Origin: Candidatus Omnitrophota bacterium
GTDB taxonomy: Bacteria; Omnitrophota; Gorgyraeia; Zapsychrales; Fredricksoniimonadaceae
Assembly: GCA_903908245.1 (NCBI GenBank)
Contig: CAIVRE010000007.1
Coordinates: 4,984-68,983 of the forward strand
DNA: 64,000 bases
Reading direction: 5' to 3'
The notes beneath the pieces are model-generated. The model saw only the letters and a program-made list of their open reading frames with translations. It was not told where the DNA came from and did no database searches. Both the position numbers and the translations under genes were made by a program. This document shows positions 5,011-52,370 of the stretch, piece by piece (within the stretch, counting starts at the first letter, position 1; the number at the start of each line of letters is the position of its first letter).

Positions 5011-5019
5011 TATATTTAC

Positions 5020-32257: not shown

Positions 32258-35200
32258 ATGCCTCAGGGGTCTTTCATTAAAAACTTCGGGCAATCCGCGG
32301 CGAACTTTTTCTTTTTCACCGGGGCTTTCTTTCTGGTCGTTTTCGCGGCCTGGGGGGCGGGTATCACTGTTCCCCAGAATTCCCAGTTAAAACTCAATAC
32401 CGGCAAACTGAACCTCAAGCTTGATAATAATTCCGGTCACGTGAATAACGCCGGGGTCATTCAGATGACGACCGGCGAGATCAAGCTTAACGGCAACTGG
32501 ACAACGACTACTGCCTCAGGATACATTTTAGGCGGTTCGGGGACGGTTGAGTTCGCGGCGGACGCTGGCACCCAGTATATTGTGCCGGGGGCGAACAGCA
32601 ATGACACGTTCGGCGATGTGGTCCACAGTGGGTCGGCCGCGGTCGAGCTGGTCGCCCATCCGATCAAGATCGGCGGGAGTTTTAATAACAACGTCGGGAC
32701 ATTTAAAACTAACAATCTTAATATGACGGTGGGAAGGGATTGGAATAATCCGGCATTCCCGGCGTTCATTTCCGGGTCTGCCACTGTTAACCTGGATGGC
32801 GGGGACCAGGTGATCTCCGGGAGCACGACATTTAACAATCTTACCAAGGTCCTGACTGCGGCCGGAAATCATTCCCTGACTTTTCCTTCCGGCAAGGAAC
32901 AGAAGGTTTCGCGTCTTTTGACCCTGCGGGGGTTCGGCGGTACGGGGAAACTGTTCCTGGGGAGCAGTACCAATACCACACAGGCTTTTCTGACACTGCA
33001 GAATAGCGGGGTCCAGGATATTCATACGGTGCATGTCCGGGATAATAATGCCGGCAATGGGCTTGTGCTGGTGGCGCGCGGGGTGGATTCCAGCGACTTG
33101 GGGAATAATTTCCATTGGTTGTTCGGTGCTGTCACGGTCAAATGGGACGGATCCGAGGACAATGACTGGAACAATCCGTTCAACTGGGATGTTGGCCTGG
33201 TGCCGGGGGAGCTTGATACCGCGATCATTCGTGTCTTCGACGAGGATACAGGGTTGCCTATTGTGCGGGAGCCGGTATTGAGCGGGGGGATCTCGCCTGT
33301 CACGGGGCTTGCGATCACGAACCGTGTCGGGAATTTGATCATCCGTCCAGGGGCGACATTAAAACTGGATGGACGGGATATGACCATTGATGGCGGGTTT
33401 ACCAATGATGGTACGGTCATTCTTGACGGCATGGTCATGGTTGGCGGGGTCAGGACGGAAACGTTGACGGCCGGCAGCATGGTCGATAACGGGACGTTCA
33501 TGTATTACGGCCGGCCTGGCATGAAATCCACGATCGATCTGACCCAGAGCTTTCTGATCGGCGGGAATTATCTGACCACATTCAACAATCTGGTGATCAA
33601 TGAACAGGTTTCGGGTCCTTTTGAATCCGATACTTTTGTAACAGGCGTTCCGCTCACGATCAGTCATGCGATGACGCTTGATGCGGGTGCGTTCACGATC
33701 GGTCCCGGGTCCACGCTTTTTGTCCAGGGCAGTTTAACGGCGAATGGCGGCACTTTTACGATCAGTGAGGCTGTCAGTGTCACGGGTGATACGAATATTT
33801 CCGGGGCATCGGTGGTGATAGCCAGCAATACAGCCACGTTGACGGACCTTCGGGACCTGAATGTTTCCTCCGGCACGCTCAATGCCCTGCAGGGTAATAT
33901 CCGTGCGAACAGTGTGAATATATCCGGTGGTACACTCCTGGCTCCGGGGCCGGGACAAAGCTTTGCCATCTCCGCGGACTTTACGCATTTGCCGGCCGGG
34001 ATTTTTACGCACGACAATGGGACCGTTACTTTTGACGCTTTGTCTAATGCTGCGAACACCGATCAGGTTATTTCCGGGGATACATCTTTTTATGATTTCG
34101 TCAAGCAAGTCCCGGATGCGGCATTCGTCGGCCAGACGCAGAGGCTGACTTTGGCTGAAACTTCCACACAAACGGTGGGGAATTATCTGACATTGACGGG
34201 AGGGGTGGATCTGCTTCTGATCCGCAGTACGACCACGACCGGCGTGGCGGGGAATTTGAAACTTGTCACCAACGCGGGGCAGACCATTAGGAATGTCGAT
34301 GTGGAGAATAACGCCGCCACGGGCCTGACCCTGGTTGGCCGCGGCTTGTCCAGGAGGACAGGGAACAATACCCCGAACTGGGAATTCGGGTCGGCCACGA
34401 TCACCTGGGATGGTTCCGAGTCGACGGATTGGAATGAGCAGCGTAACTGGAACCTGGGCATTATCCCTCTTCCGAACGATAATGTGGTTGTGACCAACGG
34501 CGCGACCGTTGATTTCCAGCCGGTATTATCCAGTGATGTGACCGTGGGTGAGCTCACCCTGTTCGTGCCATCCGCGACTTTGCACCTTGCGGGGTTCAAC
34601 ATGACGGTTCACAATACGATCACGTCTTCCGGGACCCTTTCCAATGAGGGGGTTATTTTCCTGCGCGGCACAGAGCGTGTGAGCATTGATACTCCGGATA
34701 CGGATTCCGGGATGTTTGTTTACCAGGGAGATAATAACCCTGGTGTAAAACAGATCACGGTTTTGGGCCCGAATACTTTTTATAATCTGAAGATCAATGA
34801 CCTCAATGGCAATCCTTCCAATTTCACGCTTACGACCGATATGACCATTCATGGTTCTTTGACGGTCGATGGCGGAACGATGACTTCGAGTGGTTATAGC
34901 ATTGATCTGGGCGGGAGTTTTGTTCTGTCGAGCGGGACGTTCATGGCGCCGGGGACCGGAAAAACGTTGTTTGTCGGCGGGAATTTCACTCATACGGGGG
35001 GTGCCTTTATCCATAATGACGGGACCGTGGTGTTTGATGCCCCGGCCAGTGTTCCGTTGAACGACCAGGTTATTTCTGGGGACACGAGTTTCTTCGAGTT
35101 CATCAAGCAGGTCCCGGTGACGGCCGCGCCGCTGCAGCAGCTGACCTTTGCCGATGCTTCGCTCCAGTCGGTGCTTGGGAAGCTTGTCCTCCAGGGGGCA

Positions 35201-38200
35201 TCCCTGGCTAATCCTTTGCTTATCCGGTCAAGCCTTGCGGGAACGGCGGCTTATTTGAAACTTGAGGTCGGCGGGCGTCAGACCATTTCGGCGGTCGATG
35301 TCAAGGATTCAAATGCTTCCGGGGTTACCCTCGTGGCCCGGAATTCTCCGGACCATTTCGATATCCCTCCCAGTAATTTTTACAATAACACGAACTGGGT
35401 TTTCGGGGTCCCGGTCATAAGATGGGACGGTTCCGCGTCCACTGATTGGGGGGATCCGCTCAACTGGAACCTCGGGATTGTCCCGATCTCCGGGGATGCT
35501 GTGGTCATCCGGTCGATCGACCCTCTGAGCATTCCACCTGGTCAGCAGATCATGAATCAACCGCAACTGACCGCCTTGTCGGGGGCGGTCTCTCCAGGAA
35601 GTATGACGCTTGATTCCGGGACGACATTGACCCTTAACGGCTTCGGCCTTACGGTCCAGGACACGTTGACGAATAATGGCAATATCATTGCGCAGGGAGG
35701 GGAGCCTATTGCGATCCATTTTCCTGATACGCAGCACGGCACATTTACCTATACAGGCGTGCCCGGCGGAACGGTTGCGCTGAATAAATTCGACCCCGCC
35801 CATACGGCTATTGAGTATTATAACCTGGTCCTGACGGATAACGGAGTTGCCAATTTGTTCCAGAGCCAGGGCGATGTCCATGTTTTCGGCAATCTGACCG
35901 TGTCTTCCGGAAGCCTGGATGTATCGACCGGCAGCGATTCGTTAAAGATCGACGGGAACATGCTGATCGCTTCCGGCACGACCGTGAACGCTTTGAACGG
36001 CGCGATTGATCTGCAGGGCTCGGTCAGTATTAATGGCCGTCTTTCAGCGCCGATCACCAATCATTCGTTCACTGTCGGAGGCAGCTGGTCGCTTGACCCT
36101 GTGACCGGGATATTCGAGCACAATTCCGGGCGGGTGACGTTTGATACATCCAATGCCACGACACTGACGGGGAACACGGTGTTCTTCGACCTGGCGATCG
36201 AATCCAATAGCGGTAAAAAGGTATTTTTCCAGGCGGGGAGTACCCAGACCATCCTTGACTCGCTGGGTATGGTAGGCGGAGGGGCGGGCAAGATCATTCT
36301 GCGTTCGACCCAGGAAGGGACGCAATGGACCCTTCTGCTGAGTTATATCAATAATGCCGATGCAACGATCATCCCCAATACTCTTGTCCGGTTCGTGGAT
36401 GTCAAGGATTCGATCGCGACAGGCCCATTAGGGCTGGCCGTCAGGCCGACCTATATTACGGCGATCAATTCCATTGATCAGCCGTCGGTCCTTCCGAATC
36501 AGGGGTGGAAGTTCATGCAATTGACCTTGATCGCTCCGGTGGATGAGCGTGTGGTGGGGGTGAGGCCGGTCCTGATCGGCCAGGCTTTCCCGGAAGAGGC
36601 ATATACGGTGAAGGATAAAGGAGGGGTTGTGGTGGCGTCCGGGACGGCGGATAGCCACGGGTATTTCCGGACGGAATTGACCGCGGACCTGCCTCTGGGA
36701 GCAAATCAGTTAACGCCTTATTATTTGAGCGTCCCCGGCATTTCCAGTGACCTGACAATCGACGCGGCCCCTGTCCCTGCCCAGGTGCCGGTGATCACCA
36801 GTCCTTCGGTATCTGTCCGTTTGAGCGGTAACCGTCCGACGTTCACCGGGGTGGCCAAGCCCAATACTTTGGTGTATGTGGTCGCCAACAATTATACGAT
36901 CTCCAATAACAACACGATCGACATGCCGTTAACCCTTCCGCTGGAGAGTGCCGCGGGCGTCGGCATGTCGGATGCGGCAGGGAACTTTTCGATCCAGTTG
37001 ACAACAGCATTGAAGCGCGGACAGAATACGATCTCGGTGGTGGCGGACGGTGTTTCCAGTGCGATAAATACGTATTCCTTGAATGATATTTACGGGTATC
37101 TTTTTGATTCCGCGACGAACAATACCATTCGCGGGGCCAGGGTGTATCTGTATAAACTCGATGGTAACGGCCAGAGGATCCCGGTCGTCAGGGGGCTTGA
37201 TATTGCTCTTCTTGAAGCGGACCAGCCTAACCCGGTCCTGACCAATGACGCCGGTCTTTTTGAGATCCGGGTGATCAATTTTGACCCGACGGTCCGGTAT
37301 GTGCTTGATGTGCAGGAGCTTGGCTACACCTTTCCGACAGCGATCAAGGACAATAGCCTGCTTCCGGCTGGCCGCCTGATCATAACGGGATCGCGTGGAG
37401 AGGCTTTTTCATTGCTGACGGATTCTGTGCGGCTTGACCTGCCGGTTGATGCCAATCAGTTCCTGTTCAAGGTTACCAAAGATGCCAACAAGGCGGAAGC
37501 CAGGATCGGTGAGGTCGTGACCTATACCGTAACCATTGAGAACCTGTCGGATCAGAATACGGTCCTGGAGACCCGGCTGAATGATATTATTCCGCCCGGG
37601 TTCAAGTATATGAGCGGCCGTGTTCATTTTGTTGACGGAACGCCGATCGAGGCGTCCGGTGCCCGTCCGGTCGTCTTTAAGGTCGGGGCATTTACTGCAC
37701 GCCAGATCAAGGCCATGAAATATCAGCTGGTCATCGGCGCGGGTGTCGCTCCGGGTGATTATGAGAACACCGCGTTCATGAAATATGACAATGGTTCGCT
37801 GATCTCCAATCGTGCGCATCAGACCGTCAAGGTTGTCATGGATCCCTTATTTGATGCGGGGACCGTGTTCGGAAAGGTTTTCTGGGACCTTAACGAGAAC
37901 GGCCGTCAGGATGCGCCGGAATATGATTATGAAAATCGCCAGGAGATCATTGAAGGCCCGGTGCCCAACGTGCATATCGTGATGGAGGATGGCACCAGTA
38001 TCGCGGCGGATAAGAACGGGCAGTTCCATGTCCCGGCCCTGTTGCCCGGGCGGCATGTGATCATGGTCGATCAGCGCAGCCTGCCGAAGGGCGCTTTTCT
38101 GACGACGGATAAAGCCTTGGTCATCGATGTCACGGCCGGCATGGTGGTCAAGGCGAATTTCGGCGTGAATATGGGCAATGGCCAGATCGTCGGGGAAGAC

Positions 38201-41200
38201 GTGCGCTTCTTTGACAAGAACCTTAAGGTCGATCAGACCCCCGACCATCTGACGCCGTTGCTCAATGTGGATATGTTCGAGCGGGAGCTGTGGCTGCATC
38301 TGGACACCATTATCAAGCCGGTGGAATTGCGGATGTTCATGAATTACGCTCCGTTCATTTCCTCCTGGAAACTGGATATCGTTGACAAACAGACCAAGAA
38401 GCTTGTCAGGGAGTTCAACGGGACGCGTTATAATATCAATGATCCTGTTTTCTGGGATGGGCGCGACCTTTCCGGACGGTTTGTCCGTATTGATCGTAAT
38501 TATACATATTTACTGAAAGTCCAGGATAGCAAGGGCGTTTGGGATGAGACGAAAGAAAAAGATATCGCGTTACGTGTATTGACCGACATTGAATTTGAGG
38601 CCCTTTCCAAAAAGACGGAGGAAGAAAAGACAAAAGAGTCCGAGGCCCGTGACAAGGAATATCGCGCCTGGCAGTTGGCCCAGGGATCGGCGGATCATAC
38701 GAGCCAGCGCAATATTTTTGTCCGGGGTGAAACGCTGACCATTGACCCCGAGGAGACGGATATCCGTCAGGTCCGGGTGCTCAAGAATGGCGAGTTGTTT
38801 ATTGATCTTCCGGTGCCCGAACGGCAGGCATTGACCGCCCGCGGGCTTTTGAGCGGGGAGGCGGTCCAGTCCCGGCCGGTGCAGGTTATTCTTCCGGATG
38901 GAGATTATGAGCTGGAGGTTGTCAGTGCGGACACGGGCGAGGTCGCGGCCGTAGCCGCAGGGGGCGGCCGGGTCAGTCCTGTCAAGGGGACTTCCGCGCC
39001 GGACACCTCCTCGCTGGCATCTGCTTCAGGCGTGCCGGCGCTGGATGGGAACGCCTCTTCCAGGAATAACAAGGTGTCGCAGTACCGCCGGCCGATCAAG
39101 GTGGGCGATGATTATATGACCTTCGTGGCGATGGGAGACGGGAAGGTCGGCTATAACGTCGACCGGGGCAATATTGAGCCGGTCCAGTCGGTGGATAAAT
39201 TTCGGCCCGGGTTCTATCGTGAAGGGAAGATGGCTTATTATTTGAAGGGCAAGGTCAAGGGGAAATATCTTCTGACATCGAGCTTTGATACCGAGCGTAG
39301 ACAGAAGGAAATGTTCCGTTCGATCAAGCCGGACCAGTATTATCCGGTCTATGGAGATTCTTCGACCGTGAATTATGACGCCACCAATACGCAGGGGAAT
39401 CTTTATCTGATGCTTGAGTGGGACAAGTCGCAGGCGGTCTGGGGGAATTATGCGGTTGATTTCAATGATACCGAATTCGCCAAGTACAGCCGCACACTCT
39501 ACGGCGGAAAAGTGGATTATACCAGTGTTGCGAATAATCCCTACGGCGATGCCAAGACCCGCGTGGCGACGTTCCATGCCGAGGTCCGGCAGCGTTCGGC
39601 GCATAACGAGTTCCTGGGGACGGGCGGTTCTCTGTATTACCTGAAACATCAGGGAGTGGTCGTTGGAACGGCAAAGGTCCGACTGGAAGTGCGTGATGCG
39701 GTGACCGGCTTGGTCCGCAGCACGACCGAGATGAAGGATGGTGTTGATTACGATATTGATAACAGCCAGGGCCGCATCCTTTTTTGGCAGCCGGTGGCAA
39801 TGTCGGCGGATTCGGGCAGGATCATTTCGAATCAGCTGCTCAAGGGAGACCCGGTATATGTGGTGACGGATTACGAGTATGAGGTGAAGGACAAGATGCA
39901 GGAAGCGACCCAGGGCGTGCGCGTGGCGCAGGCGGTGGGCGAGAATGTGGTCGTGGGCGGCACCTATGTGACCGAGACCCAGGCGGGAGGGAATTATCAG
40001 TTAAAGGGCGAGGATATTACGGTCCATGTCGGGAAAGATACAAAGATCAAGGCGGAATACGCCGCCACGCAATCCCAGGACAGTTCCAGTTACGTCTCGA
40101 CCGACGGAGGTATTACGTTCAGTGACCTTGTGGTGGGCAATCTTTCCTCGGGAAAAGCCTACGGCATGAGCCAGGACAGCCGCCTCTTCGACCGGCTGGG
40201 GCTCAAGAGTTATTATAAATGGATCGAGAACAATTTTGCGACCGCGTCAACATCTTCCCAGCAGGGCAAGGCGATGTCGGGCCTGGGGATGACGTTCGAC
40301 CTGACGCCGGTCACACGCCTTACGGCGAGCTATGACGTGCAGAAGTTGATCCAGCAGGGCAATTTGCAGACCACCATGCAGGTTGGCGCGCAGGAAACGG
40401 CAACGACCGTGCTGCAGTTGGCCCACGATGCCCGCCGGCTGCGGATCACCAGTGAATACCGCCGTCAGGAAGTGACCAACAAGGACGATCGTTATGTGTC
40501 CGAAAGCAACCAGGTCCAGAATACATTTGCCTTGCAGGCTGAGTACGACCTTGATGAAAAGACGAAGCTGACATCCAAATATCAGGTTGATCCGACGGGG
40601 AAGGCCTCCAAGGCAGGGGAGATCACGACAGGGATCACCCGGCAGCTGACGGACAAGTTGTCGGCTACGGTGGCGGAGGCTTTTGGTACGGCCGGCAATT
40701 CTACCAAGATCGGCGCGACGCTTAATGTGACCCCGAAGATCGCGACGACCGTTGAGGAATCTTTTGGCACGGCGGGCAAGACCTCCAGGGTAGGGGCGGT
40801 TGCGAATATTACGCCGAATATGGCGTTGACGACGGATTATCAGACGGCGCAGGCGGCTGGCGGGGTTACGACCCAGACGCGGACAACGTCCCTTGTTGGC
40901 AAAGAGCAGATCGGTGCCAAGACCAATATCCAGACCAATTACAGCATGGTACAGGCCGACAACGGGCCGACAAAGACGGTCGTCGGGGTGAATGCCGACT
41001 CGGAGGTGAAGCTTGATGACGCGATATTGAAGGCCGGTGTCAAGGTCCAGGCGGATGACAAGACGGTGTCGGTCCTGAGCCAGGGGGCCGGGATCGATGC
41101 GTCCAAGACGGACAAGGCGGGGCATACGACGACAAGCTCCGTTAAGGTGGATGAAACGCCCGCAGCGGGCAAGACAACCACGGTCACGCTTGGGGATAAG

Positions 41201-42595: not shown

Positions 42596-42654
42596 TCACA
42601 ATTAATCAATATAAATCAATTAATATAAGGTCCACGACGACGTTTATCTCCTTG

Positions 42655-45600
42655 ATGAAGAAGCCTGCCTATATACTACTTTTTCTGTTGTCTGCTTGTT
42701 TCCTCCCTTTAAAGGGCATTTATGCCCAACCCCCTGCTGAAGGGGAGCCTTCCGTGCTGGCTGATGGGCAACCGTCTGTCCTCAAAGAAGATAAAGCCCA
42801 GTCGAATTATGTTTACGACCTTAAAGTCCTGATTCAGAAGTCGCGTGAGAATATCAAGAATGTGAATGAAAAGATCAAGGACCAGGCTGTCAAGAAGCGC
42901 AATCAGCAGCGGGAAGAGAAGGCGCGCGAGTATTTCCTTCAGGCCCAGAAGCTGGCCGATGAGGGCCGGCTGGAAGAATCCCGTCAGTTGTATGCGAAAG
43001 CCATCAGCATTACCGAACATCCGGAGATGAAATACTTTATTAAGGAAAGCGAGCATCGCGCCAAGCTTCAGAAAGCCGCGCTTTCCAAGGAAGAAAGCGA
43101 ACAGCAGCGCCGGACCGAAGAGGATGAGAAGACGGCGTTCGAGCGTGTTGAGAACATGTATCAGGGGGCGGTGTCCCTTTACAAGCAGCAGCGTTTTAAG
43201 GAAGCCAAGGAGGAGTTTCAGACGGTTGAAGAAGTTTTCCCTGATTACAAGGCGGTCCGCAGTTATCTGCAGATCATCGAACAGGATATTGTCCAGGCGG
43301 AACGGCAGGGCATCAAAGATCAGCAGAAAGAGATCGAGTCGCAGCAGAAGGAAAGCGAGATCGCCCGTCTTCGTGAGAAGGAGTTATGGCGTAAAGAGAT
43401 CGACCGCAAGGAAGAAGACCGCAAGCGGCAGGTCCAGAAGCAGGCGCAGGGTGTTTACGATGAGGCGATCAAGCTTTATCAGGACCGCAAGTACATGGCG
43501 GCCAAGGAGAAGTTCCAGGAAGTGGAGTGGGTCATTCCGGATTTCAAGTCTACGCGTTCGTATTTGCAGCGTATCGAACGGGATCTGGAAGTGGATAAGG
43601 AGCGCGTTACGCAGGAGCGTCAACAGACTGTCGGGAAGCAGCGCTGGGAGGAGACTCTTTCCCAGAAGAAGGCCGAGGAGGAGCGCAAGAAAGCCGAGAG
43701 CATGCGCGAGCGCCAGAAGCTTGAGGGAAAGAAGGACCAGGCCGAGTTCGTGTATCAGTCGGCGATCGCCCTTTTTAACAAGGATCAATACCCGGTGGCC
43801 CGTGAGCGGTTCGATGAAGTCGAGAATATTTATCCGGATTACCGTTCGACCCGGGATTATCTTAAACGTATTGATGAAATGATGAAATCCCAGATAGCGC
43901 GGGATGAAGGGTTGCGCAGGACAGCGACCGAGCAAAAGGTCTTTGAAGAAGAAAGCGCCAAGCGCAAGGAAGAAAAAGAGAGGTTCAAGAAGTTGACGGA
44001 CGAAGCGGATTCTATTTATGCCGAGGCGTTCGAACTTTATAAGATGGGCCGGCTGATCGAAGCCAAGGAGAAATTCCTGGATGTTGACAAGCGTGTCCCG
44101 GATTATAAATCCACGCGCAGTTATTTGAGCCGCATTGATGCGGATATCGAGGCGATGGTGGCGGCAAACCGCAAGGAAGGGAACCTGGCCGCCCAGCAAG
44201 AACAGCTGACGCGCCTGAAAGAACTGCGGGATAAAGCGGATATGGCGTATAACGAAGCGGTCCTGGCGTATGATAACAAGAACTATACCGACGCCAAAGC
44301 AAAATTCCTGGAAGTTGAAAGCATATATCCGAATTATAAAAAAGCCGGGACTTATTTGTCCCGTATCGATGATGATATCGCTTCGCGTCAGAAAGAGGAA
44401 GAGCGCAGGGAAAAGGAGAAGCAGGTCGAAGGGGTTTATGCGCAGGCGTTGGTCGCTTATCAGAATGAGGAGTTTGAAGAATCCAAGGCCAAGTTCATCG
44501 AAGTGGTGTCGCTGGTCCCTGATTATAAGCAGACATCGTTTTATCTGGAGCGCATTGATGATGATGTGATCCGTCACAAACAGAAAGCCCTGGATGACGC
44601 GCAGGAGCGCCAGGCAGAGACACTTTATAATCAGGCCGTTGCCTTATATCAGGCGGGCCAGTATTCCGAGGCCAAGGATAAATTCCTTCAACTTGAGTCT
44701 GTGTATTCAAATTACAAGGATGCTGTCAAGGTTTTCGCCAATATCGATGCGGATATCCAGCGCAAAGCGCTCGAGGATGAGCAGAAAGCAAAGGCCGCCC
44801 GTGCGGAAGTATTGTATCAGCAGTCGCTGGCTTTGTATCAGGCGCAGGATTATACAGCGGCCAAGGAGAAGTTCATCCTGACGGAAGTGGTTTACCCTGA
44901 TTATAAGGATACTCCGAAGTATCTTTTGTCGATCAATAGTGATATTAAGAAGAAGGCGGAAGATCTGGAGCAGAGAAGAAAGGCCGATGAGGCCGAACCT
45001 TTATATGTTCAGGCCCTGGCGCTTTATAAAGAGCAGGATTTTGAGGCCGCAAAGAAGAAGTTCCTCCAGGTTCAGATGGCTTGTCCAGGATACAAGGAAA
45101 CAGAGCGTTATCTTGCCCGGGTCGATGAGGATATCCGTCTTTTGCAGTCCAGGCTGGCCAAGGAAGACCGGTTGAGCAAGGCCGAGGGTTTGTATGCGCA
45201 GGCGATGAGCCTTTATTCGGAGACAAAATTCGAGGAAGCCAAGGGCAAGTTCCAGGAGGTCGCCGCCCTGGAAAGCAACTATCGTAATGTGAGGGCTTAT
45301 CTGGCCCGTATTGATAGTGATATACGCAATGAACAGGCGCGTTTGGCCCGGATCGAGCAGGAACAGCTGGCCGAGCCTTATTACGCGGAGGCTGTTGCGC
45401 TTTATCATGACGGGAAGTTCGAGGAGTCTAAACCGAAGTTCGAGAAAGTGATCAGGATCCTTCCGGATTACAAGAAGGCCAGGTTTTATTTTACGCGCAT
45501 TGATAATGATATCCGTTCCCAGAAGCAGGAAGAGGTCCGTCAGCGTCAGGAGCAGGCGGAAGCGGCGTATCGTGAAGCCGCGTTCCTTTCACGCAACGGG

Positions 45601-48600
45601 GATGACACCAAGGCGTATCAGAAATACAGTGAAGTTGAAACGATCTATCCTGATTTTAAAGCGACGCGAAAAGCGTTGAAAGATTTAAAGGAAGGGTTGA
45701 TCCAGAAAAGCATAGTTCTTCCCAAAAAAGTGTTGGCTGTCGCGCCTGTCGTTACGTCTGAGCCTGTCAGGACGGGTGAAGAGGAGGTCCTTGCGCTTTA
45801 TAAAGAAGGGGTCAGCCTTTATAAAGATAAAAAGTACGCGCAGGCCAAGGACAAGTTCGAAGGGGTTGAGCGGCTTCGTTCAGGGTACCGTTCCACAGAA
45901 AGATATTTGAAGAATATCGCGGTGGAGTTGCCTGGTCCCGGTGAAGGGGCCAAGCCCAAGGAGGTTTTGGCCCAAACGCCGGTCCTTTCCGGAAATTCGC
46001 GTCAGATTTACGATCAGGAGGTCACGGCGGCCGAGCCGCTTTATAAGGCTGCGCTTGAGCTGTACAGATCGGCCCGATACGAGGAGGCGCGTGTCAAGTT
46101 CCATGAGGTTGAAGCGGTATCCCGGGATTATAAATCGACGCGTGAATATTTATTGTTGATCGCGAAGGTGAAGGGCGGTCCGAGCCCGGTGGTGGATCAG
46201 CAACTGGTCCAGGAGTCAAGGACCGTTGCGGACCTTTCGCAGAAGTCCGGGCTTTTATACAGCCAGATCCGCGCGTTGGCGGATGATAAAGATCTTGCTG
46301 CTGCGGCAAAAACATTTTCCAAGATCGACAAGATCGTCGAAAGCCTGGAACAAGAGAAAAAAAGGCTGGCGCGGACGATCGAGCGCGGAGAAAAAGAGGC
46401 GCGTGAGCGGGCTGGACGTATCAAGGCGGTTGAGAAAGAAGAGGCCCGTTCTGTCGAAAAAAGCGCGGCGGTTCATCAGCAGGACTTAAAGCAGAAGCAG
46501 GTAGAGAAGAAGGATGAGGAGGAGCGTGCGCGTCAGGCGGTTGCGATGAAGGAGCAGCAGGACTTAAAGCGCAAGGAACGGGCCCGGTTGGCTCAGGTGC
46601 AAGAAATGGAAAGGGAAAACGCTCTTAAAGCCGAAGTTTTGTATCGGCAGGGGCTGGGTAAGCTTAATGACAAGAATTATGCACTGGCCAAAGAGCGCTT
46701 TATGGATGCGCAGAAGGTGCTGCCCGGATATAAGGATACGGATCAGTTGCTCGTCAGGATCGATAAGGTCGAGGGTGAGCAGAAATTGCTTGAGCAGGAG
46801 AATGTTGACCACGGCAAGATCGCAACGATCGCGGAGAAAGCGAATGCCGTTAATCTTGAAGCCTTGGCGCTTTCTACCGCCAAGAATTTTACTGATCTTC
46901 AGAAAAAGTTCGATGAATTGAGTTCCTTATTAAAAGATATCCAGGCGATCAAGGCGCAGATGCTGGCGCGTCGTGAAGGGTTCCGTGTGGAGTGGGAGAC
47001 CAAGCTTGCCGCTTCCCGGGCAAGGTCTGCGGTTCCCAGGCCGATCAAGGATGCGAAGGCCATGGTTGAGGGGCGTACTGCGCGCCAGCAGGCTGAGGGT
47101 TTTTATAAGGAAGGGGAAGTATTCTATCATGCCGGGCAATACGCGGAAGCGCGTGTAAAGTTCCGGGATGCTTTTTCCGCGGACCCGACATTTAAAGCGG
47201 CGTATACTTTTTCGTTGAGGGTTGACCGCATTCTGGAGCGCCGGGATTTCGAAGAGCAACAGGACCGGGGGAACAGGGAGCGCCGTCATTTTGAGGACAA
47301 GCAGGAAGGAAAAGAACATCCGGCTTCGGTCGATGATCTGCAGATGCCGGATCCGGCCCGGGCGAAGGAGGTCTTTGGGGAAGGCATTGCGCTTTATAAG
47401 GCGAAGAGTTACAAGGAAGCGCGGATCAAGTTCGAAGAGCTTATGAAGGTCGGGGATGATTCCCAGCGGTCGAAAGCCAGGCGTTATCTCGGCTTGATCG
47501 AGTCCGGGATCGAAAAGGCCCGGCAGGAAATGGAGAAGGAAAGAACCAGGGAAGAAGCGCGTTATCTTGAGGCCAAACGCATGGAGATCCGCATGGCCTG
47601 GGAAAAAGATAAAGGGTTACAGGCTCAGCAGCTGGCGGATTCTTCTGCTTCAAACCAGCGAGGTCAGGAGGTCGCTGTTGAGCGGCAGGTGCTTTTAAGG
47701 TCTATTGAACAGGAGAATGACGCGCAACGGAAGAAGATGCTGGCGGAAAAGCTTCGCCAGAAGGATATTGCAGAGAGGCAGACTTTAACGGAATGGGGTA
47801 AGGTCAGGAAGATCGCGGCGCATCAGGATGTCAAGATGGATGTAAAAGCGCCGGCCATGCCCGATAAGGTTGATGCGGGCAAGCTTTTGTTGGTTCCGGC
47901 GAAAAAAGTGGAACCGGTGCCCAGGAAAGAGAAATCTGTGCCCGTTGATGAGGGGAAATCGCCTGTGCAGGAAGTGAAGGTTGCGGTGGCAGTGGCGGCG
48001 ACGGATGTGAAGACCGAGGCCAGGTCCCGGGAGAAGCTTGCGGCCAGTAGTATGAAGAAAAAGCCGTTGCTGGTCACGGCGACGGATAGCCGTGAAGATG
48101 CTAAATTCCAGCGGCTGATCACACGGGAGAAAGCCCTTGAGGCAAGGGAAACAGAGCGCAAGCGGCTGATCATGGAGCAGGAGCACCGCTCCAGGGAGCT
48201 TGAGAAAATGCGGCTTGAGGAAAAGAAGCAGCGTGCGCTGGACAATCAGAATCGTCGAGAGCAGAGAGGGGGCAAGGCCGTGGTTGTGTCTGTTCCCGGG
48301 AAGCCCGAAGTGGGTGTTCAGGTTCCCGTTGCGGCGGTTCCGGTTGTTTTGGCGCCACCTCTTAAGGGAGCAGGATCTTTTGATGTGTATAAGGTTGCGG
48401 CCAATGAAGAAAAACGCCGTCTTGAAGAACAGCGGTCCGCGATCGTGCATGATTTTGAGGTCGGCGTTGAGCGTTTGTATGTGGAAGCCCAGGACCTTTA
48501 CACGAAACATGCGTATGAAGAATCAAAGGCTGATTTTGATCAGATCAATGAACTGAGCAAAGGTTATAAGAGAACAGAGCAGTATTTGACGCTGATCAAT

Positions 48601-48738
48601 AAAGAATTGGCAAAAGCTTCGTATAAACAAAAGACAGTTGCTGTTCCTTTCCCGGGTTCTTCCGCGATAAAGGCTGATGGCCGTCAACAGGCAGTTTCCC
48701 AAATGCTTGACCAGGCTGAGTCGGGTGCCGTGAAGTAA
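42655..48738 (+). CDS. 2027-aa predicted lipoprotein composed of ~20 tandem helical repeats (unrecognised repeat family) plus a highly charged coiled-coil C-terminal half
   Basis: ATG 42655 gives the signal peptide MKKPAYILLFLLSACFLPLKG (possible lipobox LSAC). A 62-100-aa unit recurs: '(A)E.LY.QA..LYK...Y.EAK.KF.EVE..(Y/F)PDYK.TR.YL.RID.DI' followed by a K/E/R/Q-rich linker. The ORF-track start at 42532 overlaps the giant gene. Confidence 0.8.
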   Translation: MKKPAYILLFLLSACFLPLKGIYAQPPAEGEPSVLADGQPSVLKEDKAQSNYVYDLKVLIQKSRENIKNVNEKIKDQAVKKRNQQREEKAREYFLQAQKLADEGRLEESRQLYAKAISITEHPEMKYFIKESEHRAKLQKAALSKEESEQQRRTEEDEKTAFERVENMYQGAVSLYKQQRFKEAKEEFQTVEEVFPDYKAVRSYLQIIEQDIVQAERQGIKDQQKEIESQQKESEIARLREKELWRKEIDRKEEDRKRQVQKQAQGVYDEAIKLYQDRKYMAAKEKFQEVEWVIPDFKSTRSYLQRIERDLEVDKERVTQERQQTVGKQRWEETLSQKKAEEERKKAESMRERQKLEGKKDQAEFVYQSAIALFNKDQYPVARERFDEVENIYPDYRSTRDYLKRIDEMMKSQIARDEGLRRTATEQKVFEEESAKRKEEKERFKKLTDEADSIYAEAFELYKMGRLIEAKEKFLDVDKRVPDYKSTRSYLSRIDADIEAMVAANRKEGNLAAQQEQLTRLKELRDKADMAYNEAVLAYDNKNYTDAKAKFLEVESIYPNYKKAGTYLSRIDDDIASRQKEEERREKEKQVEGVYAQALVAYQNEEFEESKAKFIEVVSLVPDYKQTSFYLERIDDDVIRHKQKALDDAQERQAETLYNQAVALYQAGQYSEAKDKFLQLESVYSNYKDAVKVFANIDADIQRKALEDEQKAKAARAEVLYQQSLALYQAQDYTAAKEKFILTEVVYPDYKDTPKYLLSINSDIKKKAEDLEQRRKADEAEPLYVQALALYKEQDFEAAKKKFLQVQMACPGYKETERYLARVDEDIRLLQSRLAKEDRLSKAEGLYAQAMSLYSETKFEEAKGKFQEVAALESNYRNVRAYLARIDSDIRNEQARLARIEQEQLAEPYYAEAVALYHDGKFEESKPKFEKVIRILPDYKKARFYFTRIDNDIRSQKQEEVRQRQEQAEAAYREAAFLSRNGDDTKAYQKYSEVETIYPDFKATRKALKDLKEGLIQKSIVLPKKVLAVAPVVTSEPVRTGEEEVLALYKEGVSLYKDKKYAQAKDKFEGVERLRSGYRSTERYLKNIAVELPGPGEGAKPKEVLAQTPVLSGNSRQIYDQEVTAAEPLYKAALELYRSARYEEARVKFHEVEAVSRDYKSTREYLLLIAKVKGGPSPVVDQQLVQESRTVADLSQKSGLLYSQIRALADDKDLAAAAKTFSKIDKIVESLEQEKKRLARTIERGEKEARERAGRIKAVEKEEARSVEKSAAVHQQDLKQKQVEKKDEEERARQAVAMKEQQDLKRKERARLAQVQEMERENALKAEVLYRQGLGKLNDKNYALAKERFMDAQKVLPGYKDTDQLLVRIDKVEGEQKLLEQENVDHGKIATIAEKANAVNLEALALSTAKNFTDLQKKFDELSSLLKDIQAIKAQMLARREGFRVEWETKLAASRARSAVPRPIKDAKAMVEGRTARQQAEGFYKEGEVFYHAGQYAEARVKFRDAFSADPTFKAAYTFSLRVDRILERRDFEEQQDRGNRERRHFEDKQEGKEHPASVDDLQMPDPARAKEVFGEGIALYKAKSYKEARIKFEELMKVGDDSQRSKARRYLGLIESGIEKARQEMEKERTREEARYLEAKRMEIRMAWEKDKGLQAQQLADSSASNQRGQEVAVERQVLLRSIEQENDAQRKKMLAEKLRQKDIAERQTLTEWGKVRKIAAHQDVKMDVKAPAMPDKVDAGKLLLVPAKKVEPVPRKEKSVPVDEGKSPVQEVKVAVAVAATDVKTEARSREKLAASSMKKKPLLVTATDSREDAKFQRLITREKALEARETERKRLIMEQEHRSRELEKMRLEEKKQRALDNQNRREQRGGKAVVVSVPGKPEVGVQVPVAAVPVVLAPPLKGAGSFDVYKVAANEEKRRLEEQRSAIVHDFEVGVERLYVEAQDLYTKHAYEESKADFDQINELSKGYKRTEQYLTLINKELAKASYKQKTVAVPFPGSSAIKADGRQQAVSQMLDQAESGAVK
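42950..47520 (+). repeat. tandem array of ~19 coding repeats (period 190-300 nt), with one more degenerate copy at ~48440-48610
   Basis: Repeated ...PDYK(S/A/Q/D)T(R/S)xYLxRIDxDI... blocks seen, e.g. at ~43240, 43540, 43840, 44100, 44330, 44520, 44710, 44890, 45080, 45270, 45460, 45650. Confidence 0.7.
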
Positions 48739-48749
48739 GGGGAAAAATA

Positions 48750-49253
48750 ATGCGGGATGTCTTCAAGTTTGTTTTCTGGAGCTCGATTATTATTTTTTCC
48801 GGTGCCTCATTCCTGCATACGGATGTCGGTACCCGGTTCATAGGAAGGTTTTTTCGTTATTCCGGCCTGGCAAAAACGGAAAAGAAGGCTTCCAGTAATC
48901 GTGTTGGTTCCCAGGCTGTCCGGGTGAAGGCATCAGAGTTAAGTGCTGCGGCTAATGAAAAGCTCGAAGCTCTTGGGGATATTCCTTCTCAAGATACAGG
49001 TATTCAATCAGCACGCATGAACAAGGCCGCGGAGGAAATATTTCACAATAAACTTGAGGCGCTTCGGGACAAGCAGGAAAGGTTTCGTGACCGGCAAAAA
49101 GGCGTTTCTGTTGAAAGGGAAGACAACCAGGCTATCGGCGATAAAATAGAAGCTGTAAGGCAGAAGCTTGAGATAGCGCAAGAACAGGCGCAGGCACAGA
49201 GGGAGCGGGCAATGGCCCAAAAAGCCCTGATGGAGGAAAAAGCGGCCCGTTAA
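48750..49253 (+). CDS. hypothetical membrane-anchored coiled-coil protein
   Basis: N-terminal TM helix (FKFVFWSSIIIFSGASFL) then a Q/E/R/A-rich helical region. Starts 12 nt after the repeat-protein stop. Confidence 0.45.
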   Translation: MRDVFKFVFWSSIIIFSGASFLHTDVGTRFIGRFFRYSGLAKTEKKASSNRVGSQAVRVKASELSAAANEKLEALGDIPSQDTGIQSARMNKAAEEIFHNKLEALRDKQERFRDRQKGVSVEREDNQAIGDKIEAVRQKLEIAQEQAQAQRERAMAQKALMEEKAAR

Positions 49254-49274
49254 TCGTATTGTGGGAACTTCGAA

Positions 49275-50798
49275 TTGCCACGACAGCCCATCAGGCTGAC
49301 GGACAGTTCAAAGTTTCTGAATCTTTCGGTGAAAAATTCAGAAAGAAAGCCAAAGGGGAATGCGGTGAAAGCATTAAAAGTGGGTTTGATCGTTTTTGTT
49401 ATTTTCTTGTTTATTGTTCTTGCCGGTGGTTGGATATTTTTAAGTACGCTGGATATCAACCGTTATATCCCTCAAGTGGCTGATGCTGTTGCCAAGGCCA
49501 CTGGCCGTCAGCTTAAGATCGGACACGCCGGGCTCGGGTTTTCTCTTAATAAAGGGGCGGTCCTGGAATTGAATAATGTCAGCTTGTCGGATGACCCGCG
49601 TTTTTCGGGTAAGTCTTTTGTAACGGCCAGCCGGATCGTTCTTTCTCTTGACCTGCGGTCGGCGTTGGTTGAAAAGAGTATTGTTATTTCAGATGTAACT
49701 ATTATAGCTCCCGAGGTAACAGTTATTCGGGCCAAAGACGGCAGTATTAATGCCGCGACCATTGGCGCGCCGGCGTCTTTGCCCGCGTCCTCTTCTGCAA
49801 AGTCTGCGGCTGTTCCATCAGCCATGGCAACAGCCCCGTTGCCGTCATTGCTGGTCAAAAAATTCCAGGTCAATGGCGGGATCATCCATTATTACGACCG
49901 CCTTTTTGATCCGCCGATAATGCTGGATATCGAGAAGGTTTCGCTCGATATTAGGAATTTTGCGTTGAATGCCCCTTTTGATGTTGTATTAAGCGCAGCG
50001 GTATTTTCCGCTGAGCCGAATCTTTCCGTATCTGGCCGTGCCGGTGTCGATATCGTCAGGCTTATGGCGAGGTTGACGGATGTAAAGGCTTCGCTCGTGT
50101 TTGATAAGATGTTGCCCGCACGGTTGAACGAGGCTCTGCCTATGATCAAGCCTGCCGGATTCAGGCAAGCGAAAGGTTCGCTCAATGTTCAGGTGAAAAA
50201 GGCAGTGCTTGATGTTAAAGGTGTGCAGGAATTTGATGCCGAAGCGGTGGTGGACGCCACGGATGCGGTCCTGGAGGGTGTTAACATCTTTGCGGCCGGA
50301 TTAAATAGTATTCCGATGTTCCCTGATCTGGCCAACACAGTGCTTGCAGACCTCCCGCCTGAAACACAAGAAGATATCAGGCGAGGGGTCACGACTGTTG
50401 ATCGCCTGGAGGTGTTGATGTCGGCAGGTCCGGATATGTTAACGGTGAAAAAGGCGGAAATGTCAACACGGGACCTGGCTGTTTCCTGTGATGGCGTGGT
50501 CAGGCTGGCGGGAGATCTGGGGATATCCGCAAAACTTTTTATTGCGCCGAAACTTTCACAAGTGCTGGTGAACAAAGTTCCGGATCTCGGCGGGTTGATG
50601 AAGGAGGATGGCCGTGTTTATATTCCTTTTTCGGTCAGTGGTCCGATGATCAAGCCAAAGGTCATGCCGGATCTTGATTATCTGACAAGGAAATTGTTGC
50701 TTGGACGGGGAAAGCAGGAGCTTGAAAAGGTGCTGGGGGACCCTGCCGTTGGAAAAGCGGTCGGGGAACTCTTTAATACTATTTTTAAGGGTAAATAG
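49275..50798 (+). CDS. AsmA-like family protein (outer-membrane assembly / lipid-transport-like)
   Basis: N-terminal signal-anchor (KALKVGLIVFVIFLFIVLAGGWIF) followed by an extended beta-rich periplasmic domain with AsmA N-terminal-like texture (DINRYIPQVADAVAKATGRQLKIGHAGLGFSL). Start is uncertain: TTG 49275 or GTG 49365. Confidence 0.6.
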   Translation: MPRQPIRLTDSSKFLNLSVKNSERKPKGNAVKALKVGLIVFVIFLFIVLAGGWIFLSTLDINRYIPQVADAVAKATGRQLKIGHAGLGFSLNKGAVLELNNVSLSDDPRFSGKSFVTASRIVLSLDLRSALVEKSIVISDVTIIAPEVTVIRAKDGSINAATIGAPASLPASSSAKSAAVPSAMATAPLPSLLVKKFQVNGGIIHYYDRLFDPPIMLDIEKVSLDIRNFALNAPFDVVLSAAVFSAEPNLSVSGRAGVDIVRLMARLTDVKASLVFDKMLPARLNEALPMIKPAGFRQAKGSLNVQVKKAVLDVKGVQEFDAEAVVDATDAVLEGVNIFAAGLNSIPMFPDLANTVLADLPPETQEDIRRGVTTVDRLEVLMSAGPDMLTVKKAEMSTRDLAVSCDGVVRLAGDLGISAKLFIAPKLSQVLVNKVPDLGGLMKEDGRVYIPFSVSGPMIKPKVMPDLDYLTRKLLLGRGKQELEKVLGDPAVGKAVGELFNTIFKGK

Positions 50799-50825
50799 CT
50801 GTTTTTGTCCGTTTTGTTTTTTTTC

Positions 50826-50854
50826 TTGTCATTGACGGAGAAAGTGGATATACT
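50826..50854 (+). promoter_or_regulatory. putative sigma70 promoter (TTGTCA -17 nt- TATACT) upstream of the third PilZ gene
   Basis: Hexamers at 50826-50831 and 50849-50854, preceded by a T-rich tract after the AsmA-like stop. Confidence 0.4.
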
Positions 50855-50884
50855 AACTCGAATTTCCGTTGGAAAGGTTTTGGA

Positions 50885-51289
50885 ATGATAAAAGATCAAG
50901 GGTTGCGCAGGCATTCTCGGGTTCGCGATGATATTCCCGTCCGCTGGTATGTTGATCAGCTTAGCCTTGAAGGAAAAGGCATTTTAAGGAATATCAGTAT
51001 TTCCGGGGCGATGCTGGAAACAAAGGCCATGATCGCTGTTGAGAACGCCCCTCTTGTTATGCTTAAAGCGCTTGAATCTGGCGAAAGCATATTCGTGCCT
51101 CCGTTGGCCAGAATGGTCTGGGGTAGGATGGCGAGGGCGGGAGGCGGGTATTTTTTTTACGGGCTGGAATTCAAGGATCCTTCCAGCGCATATTTGAATG
51201 CTCTTGCATCGCGCGTGGAAGCCAAATCGAAAAGCGCGCAGTTTGGTTTAGGTTCCGGGATAGCGGATACATCCTGGGATACTCGTTAA
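50885..51289 (+). CDS. PilZ domain protein (third single-domain c-di-GMP receptor in window)
   Basis: RRHSRVRDD (RxxxR) and NISISGAML (NxSxxG). Confidence 0.7.
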   Translation: MIKDQGLRRHSRVRDDIPVRWYVDQLSLEGKGILRNISISGAMLETKAMIAVENAPLVMLKALESGESIFVPPLARMVWGRMARAGGGYFFYGLEFKDPSSAYLNALASRVEAKSKSAQFGLGSGIADTSWDTR

Positions 51290-51322: not shown

Positions 51323-52048
51323 ATGTCAGAGAATATGATCAGGAACAATAAATTCAGGATTATTTTGTGGGGTTTGGCTGCGTTGTTATCGATCGTTAGT
51401 TTTCTGATATTTGTTTTCAATTACCGCATCCTGGAAGAGACGGTGGTCTCTTCTGAAAAGACCGCGGTGGTCCAGTCGAAGAATTACCGTTATGTGGCCA
51501 ATGAATATAAAGTGACCAAAGTGGCGCTGGATGATGCGAATCAGAAGCTGGTGGACCTTACCAAGGAACTGGAGCAGGCCAATAATGATCTTACGTTGAC
51601 ACGCAGTGAGCTTTCTTCTGTTCAGCAGGTCAATGACCAGCTGAAGGTCAGTATTGCGGTTCTTGAACGGTATAAAGTCCGGGCAGCCCAGAAGGGTGAG
51701 GGCCTGGAGTCGATGATCTCCGCGTTCAAGAAGAAGAACAAGAAAATGGACCTTGAACTTCAAACCGTGCGCAAAGAACTTGCGGTTTTTGCGCCGGATA
51801 TTTCCGATGAGAGCGAGGGCCGCGCGAAGGTCCAGATGTTCAAACAGCATATTCGCATGGTCAAGAAGAATATCAGTATCATTCGTCAGGCCGCGTATGA
51901 AGCTCGCGTGGCTGCACAGCAGGAGCATGACAGGCTGGAAGCGGCGTATGGTAATGGCGGGTTCATGGTCAAGAATGGCCAGGACAAATCGGTGACGACA
52001 TACGGTCAGAAGCGGCTGGACCTGGATGTCCGTTTTATAAATAAATAG
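51323..52048 (+). CDS. hypothetical membrane-anchored coiled-coil protein
   Basis: TM helix (FRIILWGLAALLSIVSFLIFVF) then heptad-rich sequence. 241 aa. Confidence 0.5.
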   Translation: MSENMIRNNKFRIILWGLAALLSIVSFLIFVFNYRILEETVVSSEKTAVVQSKNYRYVANEYKVTKVALDDANQKLVDLTKELEQANNDLTLTRSELSSVQQVNDQLKVSIAVLERYKVRAAQKGEGLESMISAFKKKNKKMDLELQTVRKELAVFAPDISDESEGRAKVQMFKQHIRMVKKNISIIRQAAYEARVAAQQEHDRLEAAYGNGGFMVKNGQDKSVTTYGQKRLDLDVRFINK

Positions 52049-52148: not shown

Positions 52149-52370
52149 ATGACGCTGAATATCAGGGTTTTCCCGGGAGCGAGAAAAGATCTTTTCAAGG
52201 ATGAAGGCGGCCTGGTTAAAGTCTACCTCACGGCCCCTCCGCTTGACGGACGCGCCAATGAAGCGCTGGTCAAATTCCTCGGCCGTCATTTTGATGTGCG
52301 GATTTCTTCAATAGAGATAATAAAGGGATTGAAATCAAGAAATAAAGTCATTAATATAAAGGATTTATAG
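52149..52370 (+). CDS. DUF167 (YggU/UPF0235) family protein
   Basis: LNIRVFPGARKDLFKDEGGLVKVYLTAPPLDGRANEALVKFLGRHFDV is the canonical DUF167 pattern. Confidence 0.75.
   Translation: MTLNIRVFPGARKDLFKDEGGLVKVYLTAPPLDGRANEALVKFLGRHFDVRISSIEIIKGLKSRNKVINIKDL

Follow-up and report, generated by a model that had tools for sequence, protein, structure and literature searches.

What does a bacterium build from a protein of 3445 amino acids (aa) whose gene is followed, 59 nucleotides (nt) past its stop codon, by that of a 2027-aa helical repeat protein, and then by genes for an AsmA-like protein and a PilZ domain? The question is raised by a six-gene block in a 64,000-nt stretch of contig CAIVRE010000007.1 (positions 4,984 to 68,983; assembly GCA_903908245.1) of a Candidatus Omnitrophota bacterium; this whole stretch is called the window below, and coordinates without a locus name are positions in it. 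An earlier note, made from the sequence letters, had taken the block for a candidate envelope/adhesion system, and the genes it listed are all there in the order that it gave: the giant outer-membrane protein (32258..42595), its all-helical and probably Sec-exported partner, which starts with an ATG (42655..48738), a small bitopic membrane protein with a coiled coil (48750..49253; 167 aa), the AsmA-like protein with its N-terminal transmembrane anchor (49365..50798; 477 aa), a single-domain PilZ protein (50885..51289; 134 aa) and a second bitopic membrane coiled-coil protein, here called cc241 (51323..52048; 241 aa). All six lie on the + strand with gaps of 11–111 nt, and Pfam backs the AsmA and PilZ assignments; the giant gene was read as an open reading frame (ORF) and has homologues in the same position, and the two coiled-coil proteins were recognized from their sequences. 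As homologues were found for all six proteins, the genes are real. The one start codon with several candidates is that of the AsmA-like gene, namely TTG 49275 in the ORF list, the likely GTG 49365 from orthologue alignment (MKALK...) and 49380 in the public call; a metagenome contig in ENA with a 100% identical AsmA protein has matching gene calls from the 167-aa gene onward. Domain scans of the window covered most coding-strand ORFs of at least 120 aa.

The answer we favour, at a shade below an even chance, is that these genes encode a trans-envelope assembly that anchors a giant surface protein in the outer membrane. The giant protein would be exported by Sec and its ~1030 C-terminal residues would insert as a very large outer-membrane barrel, with a passenger and an immunoglobulin (Ig)-like stalk displayed on the cell surface by analogy with autotransporters, where the two would serve attachment. 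On the periplasmic side, the conserved N-terminal domain of the partner would dock on the tail of the barrel, and from there the partner would run on below the outer membrane as a long scaffold of helices. The link from this complex to the inner membrane would be made by the small transmembrane coiled-coil protein and the AsmA-like protein, and PilZ and cc241 would form an accessory pair that makes the system responsive to cyclic di-GMP (c-di-GMP) in some clades. The analysis shows the gene content, the conserved order, the identities of the domains, the predicted folds and the joint occurrence of tail and partner; the physical docking, the surface exposure, the lipid or assembly function and the c-di-GMP control we infer. 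In a more far-reaching version, the barrel domain stands for a new outer-membrane class (more than 36 strands, predicted about 46–50), a partner filament of TPR-hairpin and long-helix units inserts into its C-terminal tail, an AsmA-like lipid bridge has this complex as its receptor in the outer membrane, and PilZ switches the whole by c-di-GMP, making up an attachment organelle of a nanobacterial, host-dependent lineage; this seems to us possible but doubtful.

Is the block a unit at all? The order giant protein, partner, (DsbH-like protein), small transmembrane protein, AsmA-like protein is met again in over 20 independent Omnitrophota contigs whose flanks vary by clade (the window, L001, L011–L014, L016–L018, L020–L022, L024, L025, L027, L028, L031/32, L034, L036 and L041); the earlier note had named as its refutation that homologues are never co-located, and they are. 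The envelope part of its proposal is likewise borne out by this syntenic cluster of envelope genes, and adhesion is read from the architecture of the giant protein. The best named homologues are all proteins of Candidatus Omnitrophota/Omnitrophica metagenome-assembled genomes (MAGs). Another 29 loci came from scanning metagenomes with the partner protein as seed, and every window protein was then mapped by tblastn onto all loci; a profile scan of genome contigs with the AsmA alignment gave three, one of them the L001 contig again. The close relatives L011–L013, reached via AsmA homologues of 46–53% identity, have giant proteins of 3367–3384 aa and partners of 1955–1986 aa in the order giant protein, tetratricopeptide-repeat (TPR) protein, optional small protein, AsmA-like protein, PilZ and 241-aa protein, followed by matching housekeeping genes; across relatives, giant-protein homologues of 3354–3384 aa occupy the equivalent position.

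Synteny within the clade of the window takes in the entire neighbourhood, with yqeY, a polysaccharide deacetylase gene and the gcv genes, and on this count the block might be nothing but gene order inherited in a slowly rearranging small genome. We consider that very improbable: the core order outlives a change of both flanks (L001, L014 and L017 types), a tail on the giant protein and the partner co-occur, and the genes are separated by short distances or overlap. Thus, L001 has the block as in the window, with a barrel region 56% identical, between RecO upstream and YgjP downstream, and in L014 the giant and partner genes overlap by 4 nt. Wherever a locus includes upstream DNA, tblastn places the stalk, the barrel and the 130-aa tail directly before the partner. 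L001 was first taken to hold a barrel-only giant protein, which was ruled out when tblastn found the passenger and stalk upstream on the + strand, so that the public gene calls are wrong or the gene is frameshifted; over L001 3806–9880 these calls put several ORFs on the opposite strand, and the deposited 1140-aa protein P0004 is a truncated call.

Downstream of the partner, most other clades have a thioredoxin-domain (DsbH-like) protein of ~680 aa, a small transmembrane coiled-coil protein and the AsmA-like protein. The DsbH-like insertion (PF03190) lies at 12939–14990 in L014 and at the equivalent position in about 20 other loci. The cluster ends with PilZ and the 241-aa protein in the window clade, L001, L017, L025 and L028 (in L015 the 241-aa protein alone was detected), and with an unrelated gene of 139–141 aa in the L014-type clade. 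The 141-aa gene that takes the place of PilZ there was considered and rejected as a PilZ; it has a weak IscU-like match and is probably an unrelated neighbour. Judged by sequence comparison across these loci, the four-gene core is a conserved unit and PilZ and the 241-aa protein are an accessory pair. No description of the cluster was met in the literature searched, where the Omnitrophota papers discuss only ORFs above 20 kb. The kinds of part are already known (an outer-membrane barrel with a passenger, TPR, AsmA-like and PilZ proteins); undescribed in that literature are the barrel family, its predicted size, the pairing of tail and partner and the linkage to the AsmA-like protein.

How might the giant protein be held in the envelope? 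For its C-terminal ~1100 aa, which the earlier note had suspected of forming a β-barrel, AlphaFold2 does predict one. The model covers aa 2250–3445 and was built on a 79-sequence alignment (mean predicted local distance difference test (pLDDT) 75.6, predicted template-modelling score (pTM) 0.69). In the barrel domain (aa 2286–3316; 39113..42205, +), DSSP reads an unbroken β-meander over model residues 37–1067 with about 56 strands, of which about 7 fall in a small inserted domain (aa 2434–2509). The region may therefore be an outer-membrane barrel of about 46–50 strands, larger than any solved barrel; a 2026 preprint describes the 36-stranded SprA as the largest known (bioRxiv 10.64898/2026.03.07.710327). 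A stretch in its middle (40730–41404; aa 2825–3049) consists of similar Thr/Gly/Ala/Val-rich hairpins whose length varies among homologues, and not all members of the family may have equally many strands.

The barrel belongs to a large family for which there is no Pfam model. A word-indexed search with the C-terminal 1150 aa of the giant protein as query gave 1329 matches at E<=1e-5. In an exhaustive HMMER search of 1.84 billion representatives (clusters at 50% identity), 2944 proteins passed E<=1e-3, and 1038 of these reached E<=1e-30. The 2944 span Omnitrophota, Planctomycetota, Chlamydiota and Nitrospirota-like and Desulfobacterota-like MAGs and are 850–7612 aa long, and the barrel domain is C-terminal in all of them. 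BLAST against 120 homologues delimits a shared module from about aa 1420–1735 to aa 3315, where most non-Omnitrophota members end exactly; these distant homologues close on ...F.R(L/I)TGK(F/Y), a canonical aromatic C-terminal β-signal, and in the window protein the corresponding TGKLY precedes the tail. Barrel-only members with signal peptides also exist (P0012, P0026). A family profile against the PDB found no solved relative by sequence, the structural matches to the model are to generic outer-membrane barrels only, and PDB sequence searches returned nothing specific for the barrel, the passenger, PilZ, the AsmA-like protein or cc241. Among residue pairs ranked by average-product-corrected mutual information over 234 homologues, the pair 135–1062, which joins a strand near the N-terminus to the last strand, comes tenth in a list filled with hub columns; in a reduced-alphabet mean-field direct-coupling analysis of the barrel, gap-block artefacts dominate. 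Immediately upstream of one barrel-family homologue (P0011) lies a diversity-generating retroelement cassette of bAvd and a reverse transcriptase (L002 8175–9934, L003 7341–9193), preceded by a protein with an FGE-sulfatase/C-type-lectin fold; in L003 the reverse-transcriptase gene overlaps the start of P0011.

Foldseek matches the model to TonB-dependent receptors, LptD, SprA and SlpA; the E values lie between 1e-9 and 1e-6, but the template-modelling (TM) scores are only 0.1–0.2; the 30-strand SlpA complex (8agd) is among the nearest large barrels, and OmpM1 (8bym) was matched as well. The presence of SprA in this list brings up the type 9 system, in which SprA/Sov, a very large single-chain barrel, is likewise accompanied by a periplasmic-side TPR protein (SprE/PorW). 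The giant barrel could by that token be a gated pore for other cargo, with the passenger as its cap or receptor: a barrel predicted to exceed the 36 strands of SprA would have a lumen that could pass folded proteins, and a TPR partner gene adjoins it. Yet the model resembles SprA no more closely than it does any other large barrel, neither a specific SprA similarity nor the type 9 genes (PorK/L/M/N, PorV) were found, and motor, ring or cargo-recognition genes are lacking from the cluster. Moreover, each barrel of this family comes joined to a variable N-terminal region of its own, as is characteristic of proteins that anchor themselves. A translocon for other cargo is hence improbable in our estimation.

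What would such a barrel anchor? The giant protein, which has no cysteine at all by composition count, begins with a hydrophobic stretch at about aa 1–36 (MPQGSFIKNFGQSAANFFFFTGAFFLVVFAAWGAG; 32258..32365, +), read directly from the sequence, which is a putative export signal. The passenger follows (aa 37–1430; 32366..36547, +) and consists of four diverged β-rich modules of ~340–420 aa that are 25–43% identical to each other in a segment-against-self BLAST, three of them opening with a WDGSxxxDWxxxxNW motif (aa 296, 717 and 1056). It has no Pfam or NCBIfam match and is 33–38% identical across Omnitrophota clades. The stalk (aa 1431–2224; 36548..38929, +), recognized by Pfam and TIGR matches and by homology to distant family members, includes a DUF11/CLIPPER domain at aa 1738–1843 (37469–37786, +; Pfam DUF11 E 2.7e-7, also TIGR01451) and is homologous to the DUF11/SdrD_B/CarboxypepD_reg regions of those members. 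A Ser/Ala/Gly-rich linker read from the sequence (aa 2225–2285; 38930..39112, +) leads to the first barrel strand; those of its residues that the AlphaFold2 model covers (model 1–33) have pLDDT <50, and we speculate that it threads through the barrel lumen. Among homologues, passengers grow to about 6,700 aa and contain domains of the kinds usual in displayed proteins (propeller, metallophosphatase, β-helix and Ig). By analogy with autotransporters, the window passenger would be exposed at the surface and may act as an adhesin.

A close parallel is with the type Va autotransporters (Ag43, chlamydial Pmp), which similarly combine an N-terminal Sec signal, a variable β-rich passenger and a C-terminal barrel in one chain, and whose aromatic β-signal recurs at the ends of distant members of the giant-barrel family. 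The scale differs, with 12 strands in ~280 aa there and about 46–50 predicted strands in ~1030 aa here, the giant protein gives no match to Pfam Autotransporter (PF03797), and the Omnitrophota copies add a periplasmic tail and a dedicated partner. With the LapA/LapD/LapG system, the locus shares a giant cell-surface protein and a c-di-GMP-sensing component. LapA, however, is a type 1 secretion substrate held in the TolC-like LapE and controlled by LapD (a degenerate GGDEF-EAL protein) and the protease LapG, and the window scans, which covered the giant protein too, found none of these, nor RTX or Bap repeats, a type 1 secretion signal, ABC-transporter, membrane-fusion-protein or TolC genes, or type 5 secretion components. 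The earlier note was thus right in keeping the locus apart from the RTX, LapA/LapG, type 5 and type 1 systems.

The same N-terminal region can also be read as lying inside the cell envelope. Four distant homologues (P0077, P0095, P0107, P0112) carry an OmpA-family (PF00691) peptidoglycan-binding domain between the Ig-like stalk domains and the barrel, in the order Big_1, DUF11, SdrD_B, OmpA, Glucodextran_B, barrel. SlpA of Deinococcus and OmpM of Negativicutes, which combine a large barrel with an elongated α-helical periplasmic element, offer a template: the giant protein would be no adhesin but a skeleton or tether with a periplasmic N-terminal region, scaffolding the outer membrane, peptidoglycan and inner membrane. 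The Foldseek proximity of the 30-strand SlpA, the housekeeping neighbourhood and a passenger conserved at 33–38%, unlike fast-evolving adhesins, agree with this. Still, 2250 β-rich residues fit poorly in the periplasm of an ultra-small cell, homologous passengers carry enzyme and propeller domains, and Pfam and NCBIfam scans find no peptidoglycan-binding domain in the window giant protein. The OmpA domain itself can be reconciled with an autotransporter-like topology, provided that the chain passes through the lumen at a point before this domain. The parts are also arranged differently, since in SlpA and OmpM the barrel chain itself carries an SLH domain at its N-terminus and a coiled coil, whereas here there is a short C-terminal tail, a separate 2027-aa protein and no SLH domain. 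Taking these together, we rate the periplasmic tether as distinctly unlikely.

What, then, lies beneath the barrel? The giant protein ends in a 130-aa helical tail (aa 3317–3445; 42206..42592, +) that AlphaFold2 models as four helices with pLDDT around 90. All Omnitrophota copies examined have the tail, and it is never missing where there is a partner, with 35–87% identity among partner-bearing loci; the loci L006 and L007 have neither partner nor tail. When 13 tails were compared with the repeat unit of the partner by hhalign, two matches were obtained (probability 62–68%, E about 5e-5); the tail thus appears to be built from the partner's own repeat unit, and it may associate with the partner's conserved N-terminal domain.

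In the partner, that domain is followed by 18 clear units, each a TPR hairpin with a long charged helix, which were detected with a repeat hidden Markov model and a regular expression (main array 43144–47547, last unit 48466–48627; both +). The core of the array has a period of 63 aa, and spacings near the N-terminus are 77–99 aa. The earlier note could place this repeat in no known family, but Pfam assigns it to TPR_2 (E 1.1e-32; 109.9 bits vs a cut-off of 27), though a unit of 63–99 aa is unusual for it. The gene shows no tandem repeat at the DNA level; hence, the array is of old origin and did not arise from an error of assembly. The predicted fold also departs from that of a TPR protein. 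In an AlphaFold2 model of aa 1–700 (pLDDT 81.8, pTM 0.32), helices of 37–76 aa alternate with helices of 14 aa, such that in each TPR hairpin the end of a long helix pairs with a short one, on which another long helix follows at once; this is the answer, at those scores, to the structure check of the repeat units that the earlier note had proposed. Foldseek finds local matches to TPR proteins (E about 1e-5) with TM scores of at most 0.1 to their superhelices, and the contiguous 34-aa repeats and superhelix that mark out TPR are absent. From the long-helix model and the low TM scores, the partner would be an extended chain of helical nodes rather than a TPR solenoid.

The earlier note had further made the partner a lipoprotein. 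The window protein does carry an LLSAC lipobox, but a lipobox-like Cys occurs in no more than 4 of 40 homologues, and the partners of the nearest relatives have ordinary signal-peptidase-I AxA/Q sites at the position of the window's IYA/Q. As the Cys is not conserved, the partner is probably a soluble, Sec-exported periplasmic protein. All 40 homologues detected come from Omnitrophota wherever their source is named, bar one 'Elusimicrobia bacterium' record (P0142), which is probably a mis-binned contig. In the search table they are 457–1202 aa long, the shortest being partial sequences, and several are annotated as 'TolA-binding protein' by the Joint Genome Institute. CpoB/YbgF is indeed a periplasmic coiled coil plus TPR protein, but its model gives only a weak partial match (23.7 bits vs 90) to the partner, which exceeds it 8 times in length and has no tol-pal genes around it.

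How would the complex reach the inner membrane? AsmA-like family proteins such as TamB, YhdP and YdbH are inner-membrane-anchored, periplasm-spanning lipid bridges; they link the outer to the inner membrane, supply phospholipid and/or help to assemble large barrels. The AsmA-like protein of the block matches Pfam AsmA (46.2 bits vs 29.8) and DUF748 (50.2 vs 50), as well as YhdP, over aa 32–239 of the longer ORF (start 49275), i.e., within its first ~240 residues. It has a conserved N-terminal transmembrane segment and is 41% identical to the L001 orthologue; across loci its length is 403–631 aa. We found 18 homologues, of which both that have a source name are from Omnitrophota, and precomputed Pfam assignments on the homologues agree. 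As in TamB–TamA, YdbH–YnbE and YhdP, an inner-membrane-anchored AsmA-family protein is here encoded beside an outer-membrane protein, but it is short, lacks DUF490 and an Omp85/POTRA partner, and has a giant barrel protein and a TPR/long-helix protein as its neighbours. The 167-aa protein is poorly conserved (44% identity to the 148-aa L011 orthologue), its transmembrane segment and coiled coil recur in a gene of 152–215 aa at the same position in other clades, and its charge distribution makes its topology ambiguous. NCBIfam otherwise gives only sub-threshold TPR, coiled-coil or LIC_11026 matches.

This arrangement brings up the foremost rival, in which the partner, the AsmA-like protein and the transmembrane coiled-coil proteins are not a standing structure but transient assembly factors resembling BamD and TamB, a dedicated module needed solely for folding and inserting so large a barrel and for exporting its passenger. 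The translocation and assembly module (TamA–TamB) assists large or complex barrels and autotransporters, and here an AsmA-like gene lies beside that of a giant barrel; the TPR segments of the partner match the BamD and YbgF models weakly and in part (e.g., 47 bits vs 81), and in many clades a thioredoxin-domain protein is inserted in the cluster. However, the barrel family has ~2,900 members, and the two non-Omnitrophota contexts examined are without these partners; the partner co-varies with the extra tail and not with the barrel itself. A scaffold of 2027 aa that looks stoichiometric would be an odd chaperone, and neither Omp85/POTRA nor DUF490 turned up in the window ORFs scanned. We therefore regard a pure assembly role as unlikely, and return to the trans-envelope anchor.

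Does c-di-GMP enter into it? The PilZ protein (31 bits vs 22.5, PF07238) retains both motifs, RxxxR as RRHSR and [D/N]xSxxG as NISISG, as do the orthologues read (window, L011, L012 and L001); in L013, pilZ is present but uncalled (tblastn). It is thus a candidate c-di-GMP receptor going by its motifs. The protein cc241 is 80% identical to its counterpart in L011, 72% in L013 and 50% in L001, with a conserved C-terminal region of ~45 aa, so that among the loci compared none of the other three accessory proteins encoded downstream of the partner is conserved as well; Pfam, NCBIfam and PDB sequence searches give no family or structure match. By the positive-inside rule, the positive charges before its transmembrane segment suggest that the N-terminus is inside, which places the coiled coil and the conserved C-terminal ~45 residues probably in the periplasm. 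The gap before pilZ measures 86 nt in the window and 41–128 nt in relatives, and in the window a consensus scan marks a promoter-like site in it (TTGTCA-17-TATACT; 50826..50854, +); such sites are no more numerous than in shuffled sequence, and a pilZ–cc241 sub-operon is weakly indicated. The c-di-GMP control of the locus that the earlier note had proposed is consequently optional at best, with PilZ absent from the cluster in a large clade and set behind its own gap. AsmA-like and PilZ proteins are not mentioned together in the literature searched. The sole other c-di-GMP-related gene among the window genes scanned codes for a GAF + HD_5 (HD-GYP-type) protein (9452–10525, +), which keeps the GYP motif and reads HN at the catalytic HD dyad; it may be a degenerate c-di-GMP phosphodiesterase or sensor.

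TPR elements, an outer-membrane barrel and PilZ in one locus also call to mind the synthase-dependent exopolysaccharide exporters (BcsC/BcsA, PgaA, AlgK–AlgE–Alg44, PelB–PelC), and a polysaccharide deacetylase and a GH149-like gene follow 0.8–1.6 kb past the end of the block (52048). Here the differences predominate. The window cluster has no glycosyltransferase or synthase, nor do the genes called in eight related loci include one, and the tblastn layout of most further loci leaves no unexplained gap the size of a gene; the deacetylase and GH149-like genes are unlinked to the cluster in L001- and L014-type loci. Further, PilZ here is soluble and stands alone as a single domain, the TPR hairpins sit singly between long helices and do not build a superhelix, and the barrel is far above the 16–18 strands of those exporters. 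The absence of a synthase largely refutes polysaccharide export, which we deem scarcely probable.

Against the trans-envelope anchor itself stand several observations. The closure of the barrel and its strand number depend on a single AlphaFold2 model, in which the middle with the hairpin repeats (aa 2825–3049) has pLDDT <50. The similarity of the tail to the partner's unit is modest, and contact between any two of the proteins is something that we infer. The length of the partner varies four-fold between lineages (537–2027 aa), which also argues against the earlier idea that it could serve as a fixed ruler measuring the periplasm. The composition of the cluster varies too: PilZ and cc241 are missing from it in the L014-type clade, and L002/3 and L005 have a giant protein and a short partner (537–600 aa) with no AsmA-like gene within ~10 kb downstream. 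The predicted cytoplasmic part of cc241 amounts to about 12 residues, which is little for PilZ to act on. Finally, the OmpA domain upstream of the barrel in some distant members may mean that the N-terminal region is at least partly periplasmic.

The wider neighbourhood is that of a core chromosomal locus, given its housekeeping genes: groEL, guaB, guaA and dnaE upstream, and a DUF167 gene, yqeY, the polysaccharide deacetylase, the 1088-aa GH149-like gene, gcvT/H/P, lipB and an S41 protease downstream. The window has a GC content of 50–57%, and its + strand carries nearly all genes. The DUF167/YggU-like ORF of 73 aa (~52149–52370, +) lies inside an apparent 347-nt gap after the block, below the 100-aa limit of the ORF list, and is called as PF02594 in L012, L013 and L044. 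The 1088-aa protein (53685–56951, +) has no Pfam match and a weak NCBIfam match to GH149 β-1,3-glucan phosphorylase (136 bits vs a cut-off of 1150); its gene is syntenic with the deacetylase gene in the window's clade. Farther upstream are cell-wall-related genes (4951–5721, 10589–11194 and 11483–12265, +) for a LysM + M23 peptidase, a SPOR-domain protein and an SH3_3-domain protein, and a gene (21922–23247, +) for a 441-aa protein that joins a GIDE (E3-ligase-like membrane) domain to a LemA domain.

Should the barrel prediction hold, an outer-membrane family of ~2,900 representatives that is absent from the domain databases would exceed the record set by SprA, and a barrel that large would raise the question of how the β-barrel assembly machinery could assemble it. 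The operon that couples an AsmA-like protein to a defined outer-membrane protein and a periplasmic scaffold provides a concrete candidate for how AsmA proteins dock at the outer membrane. Omnitrophota are uncultured, ultra-small and probably host-dependent bacteria, thought to live on other cells; for them, this core conserved surface apparatus is a candidate means of attachment to those cells.

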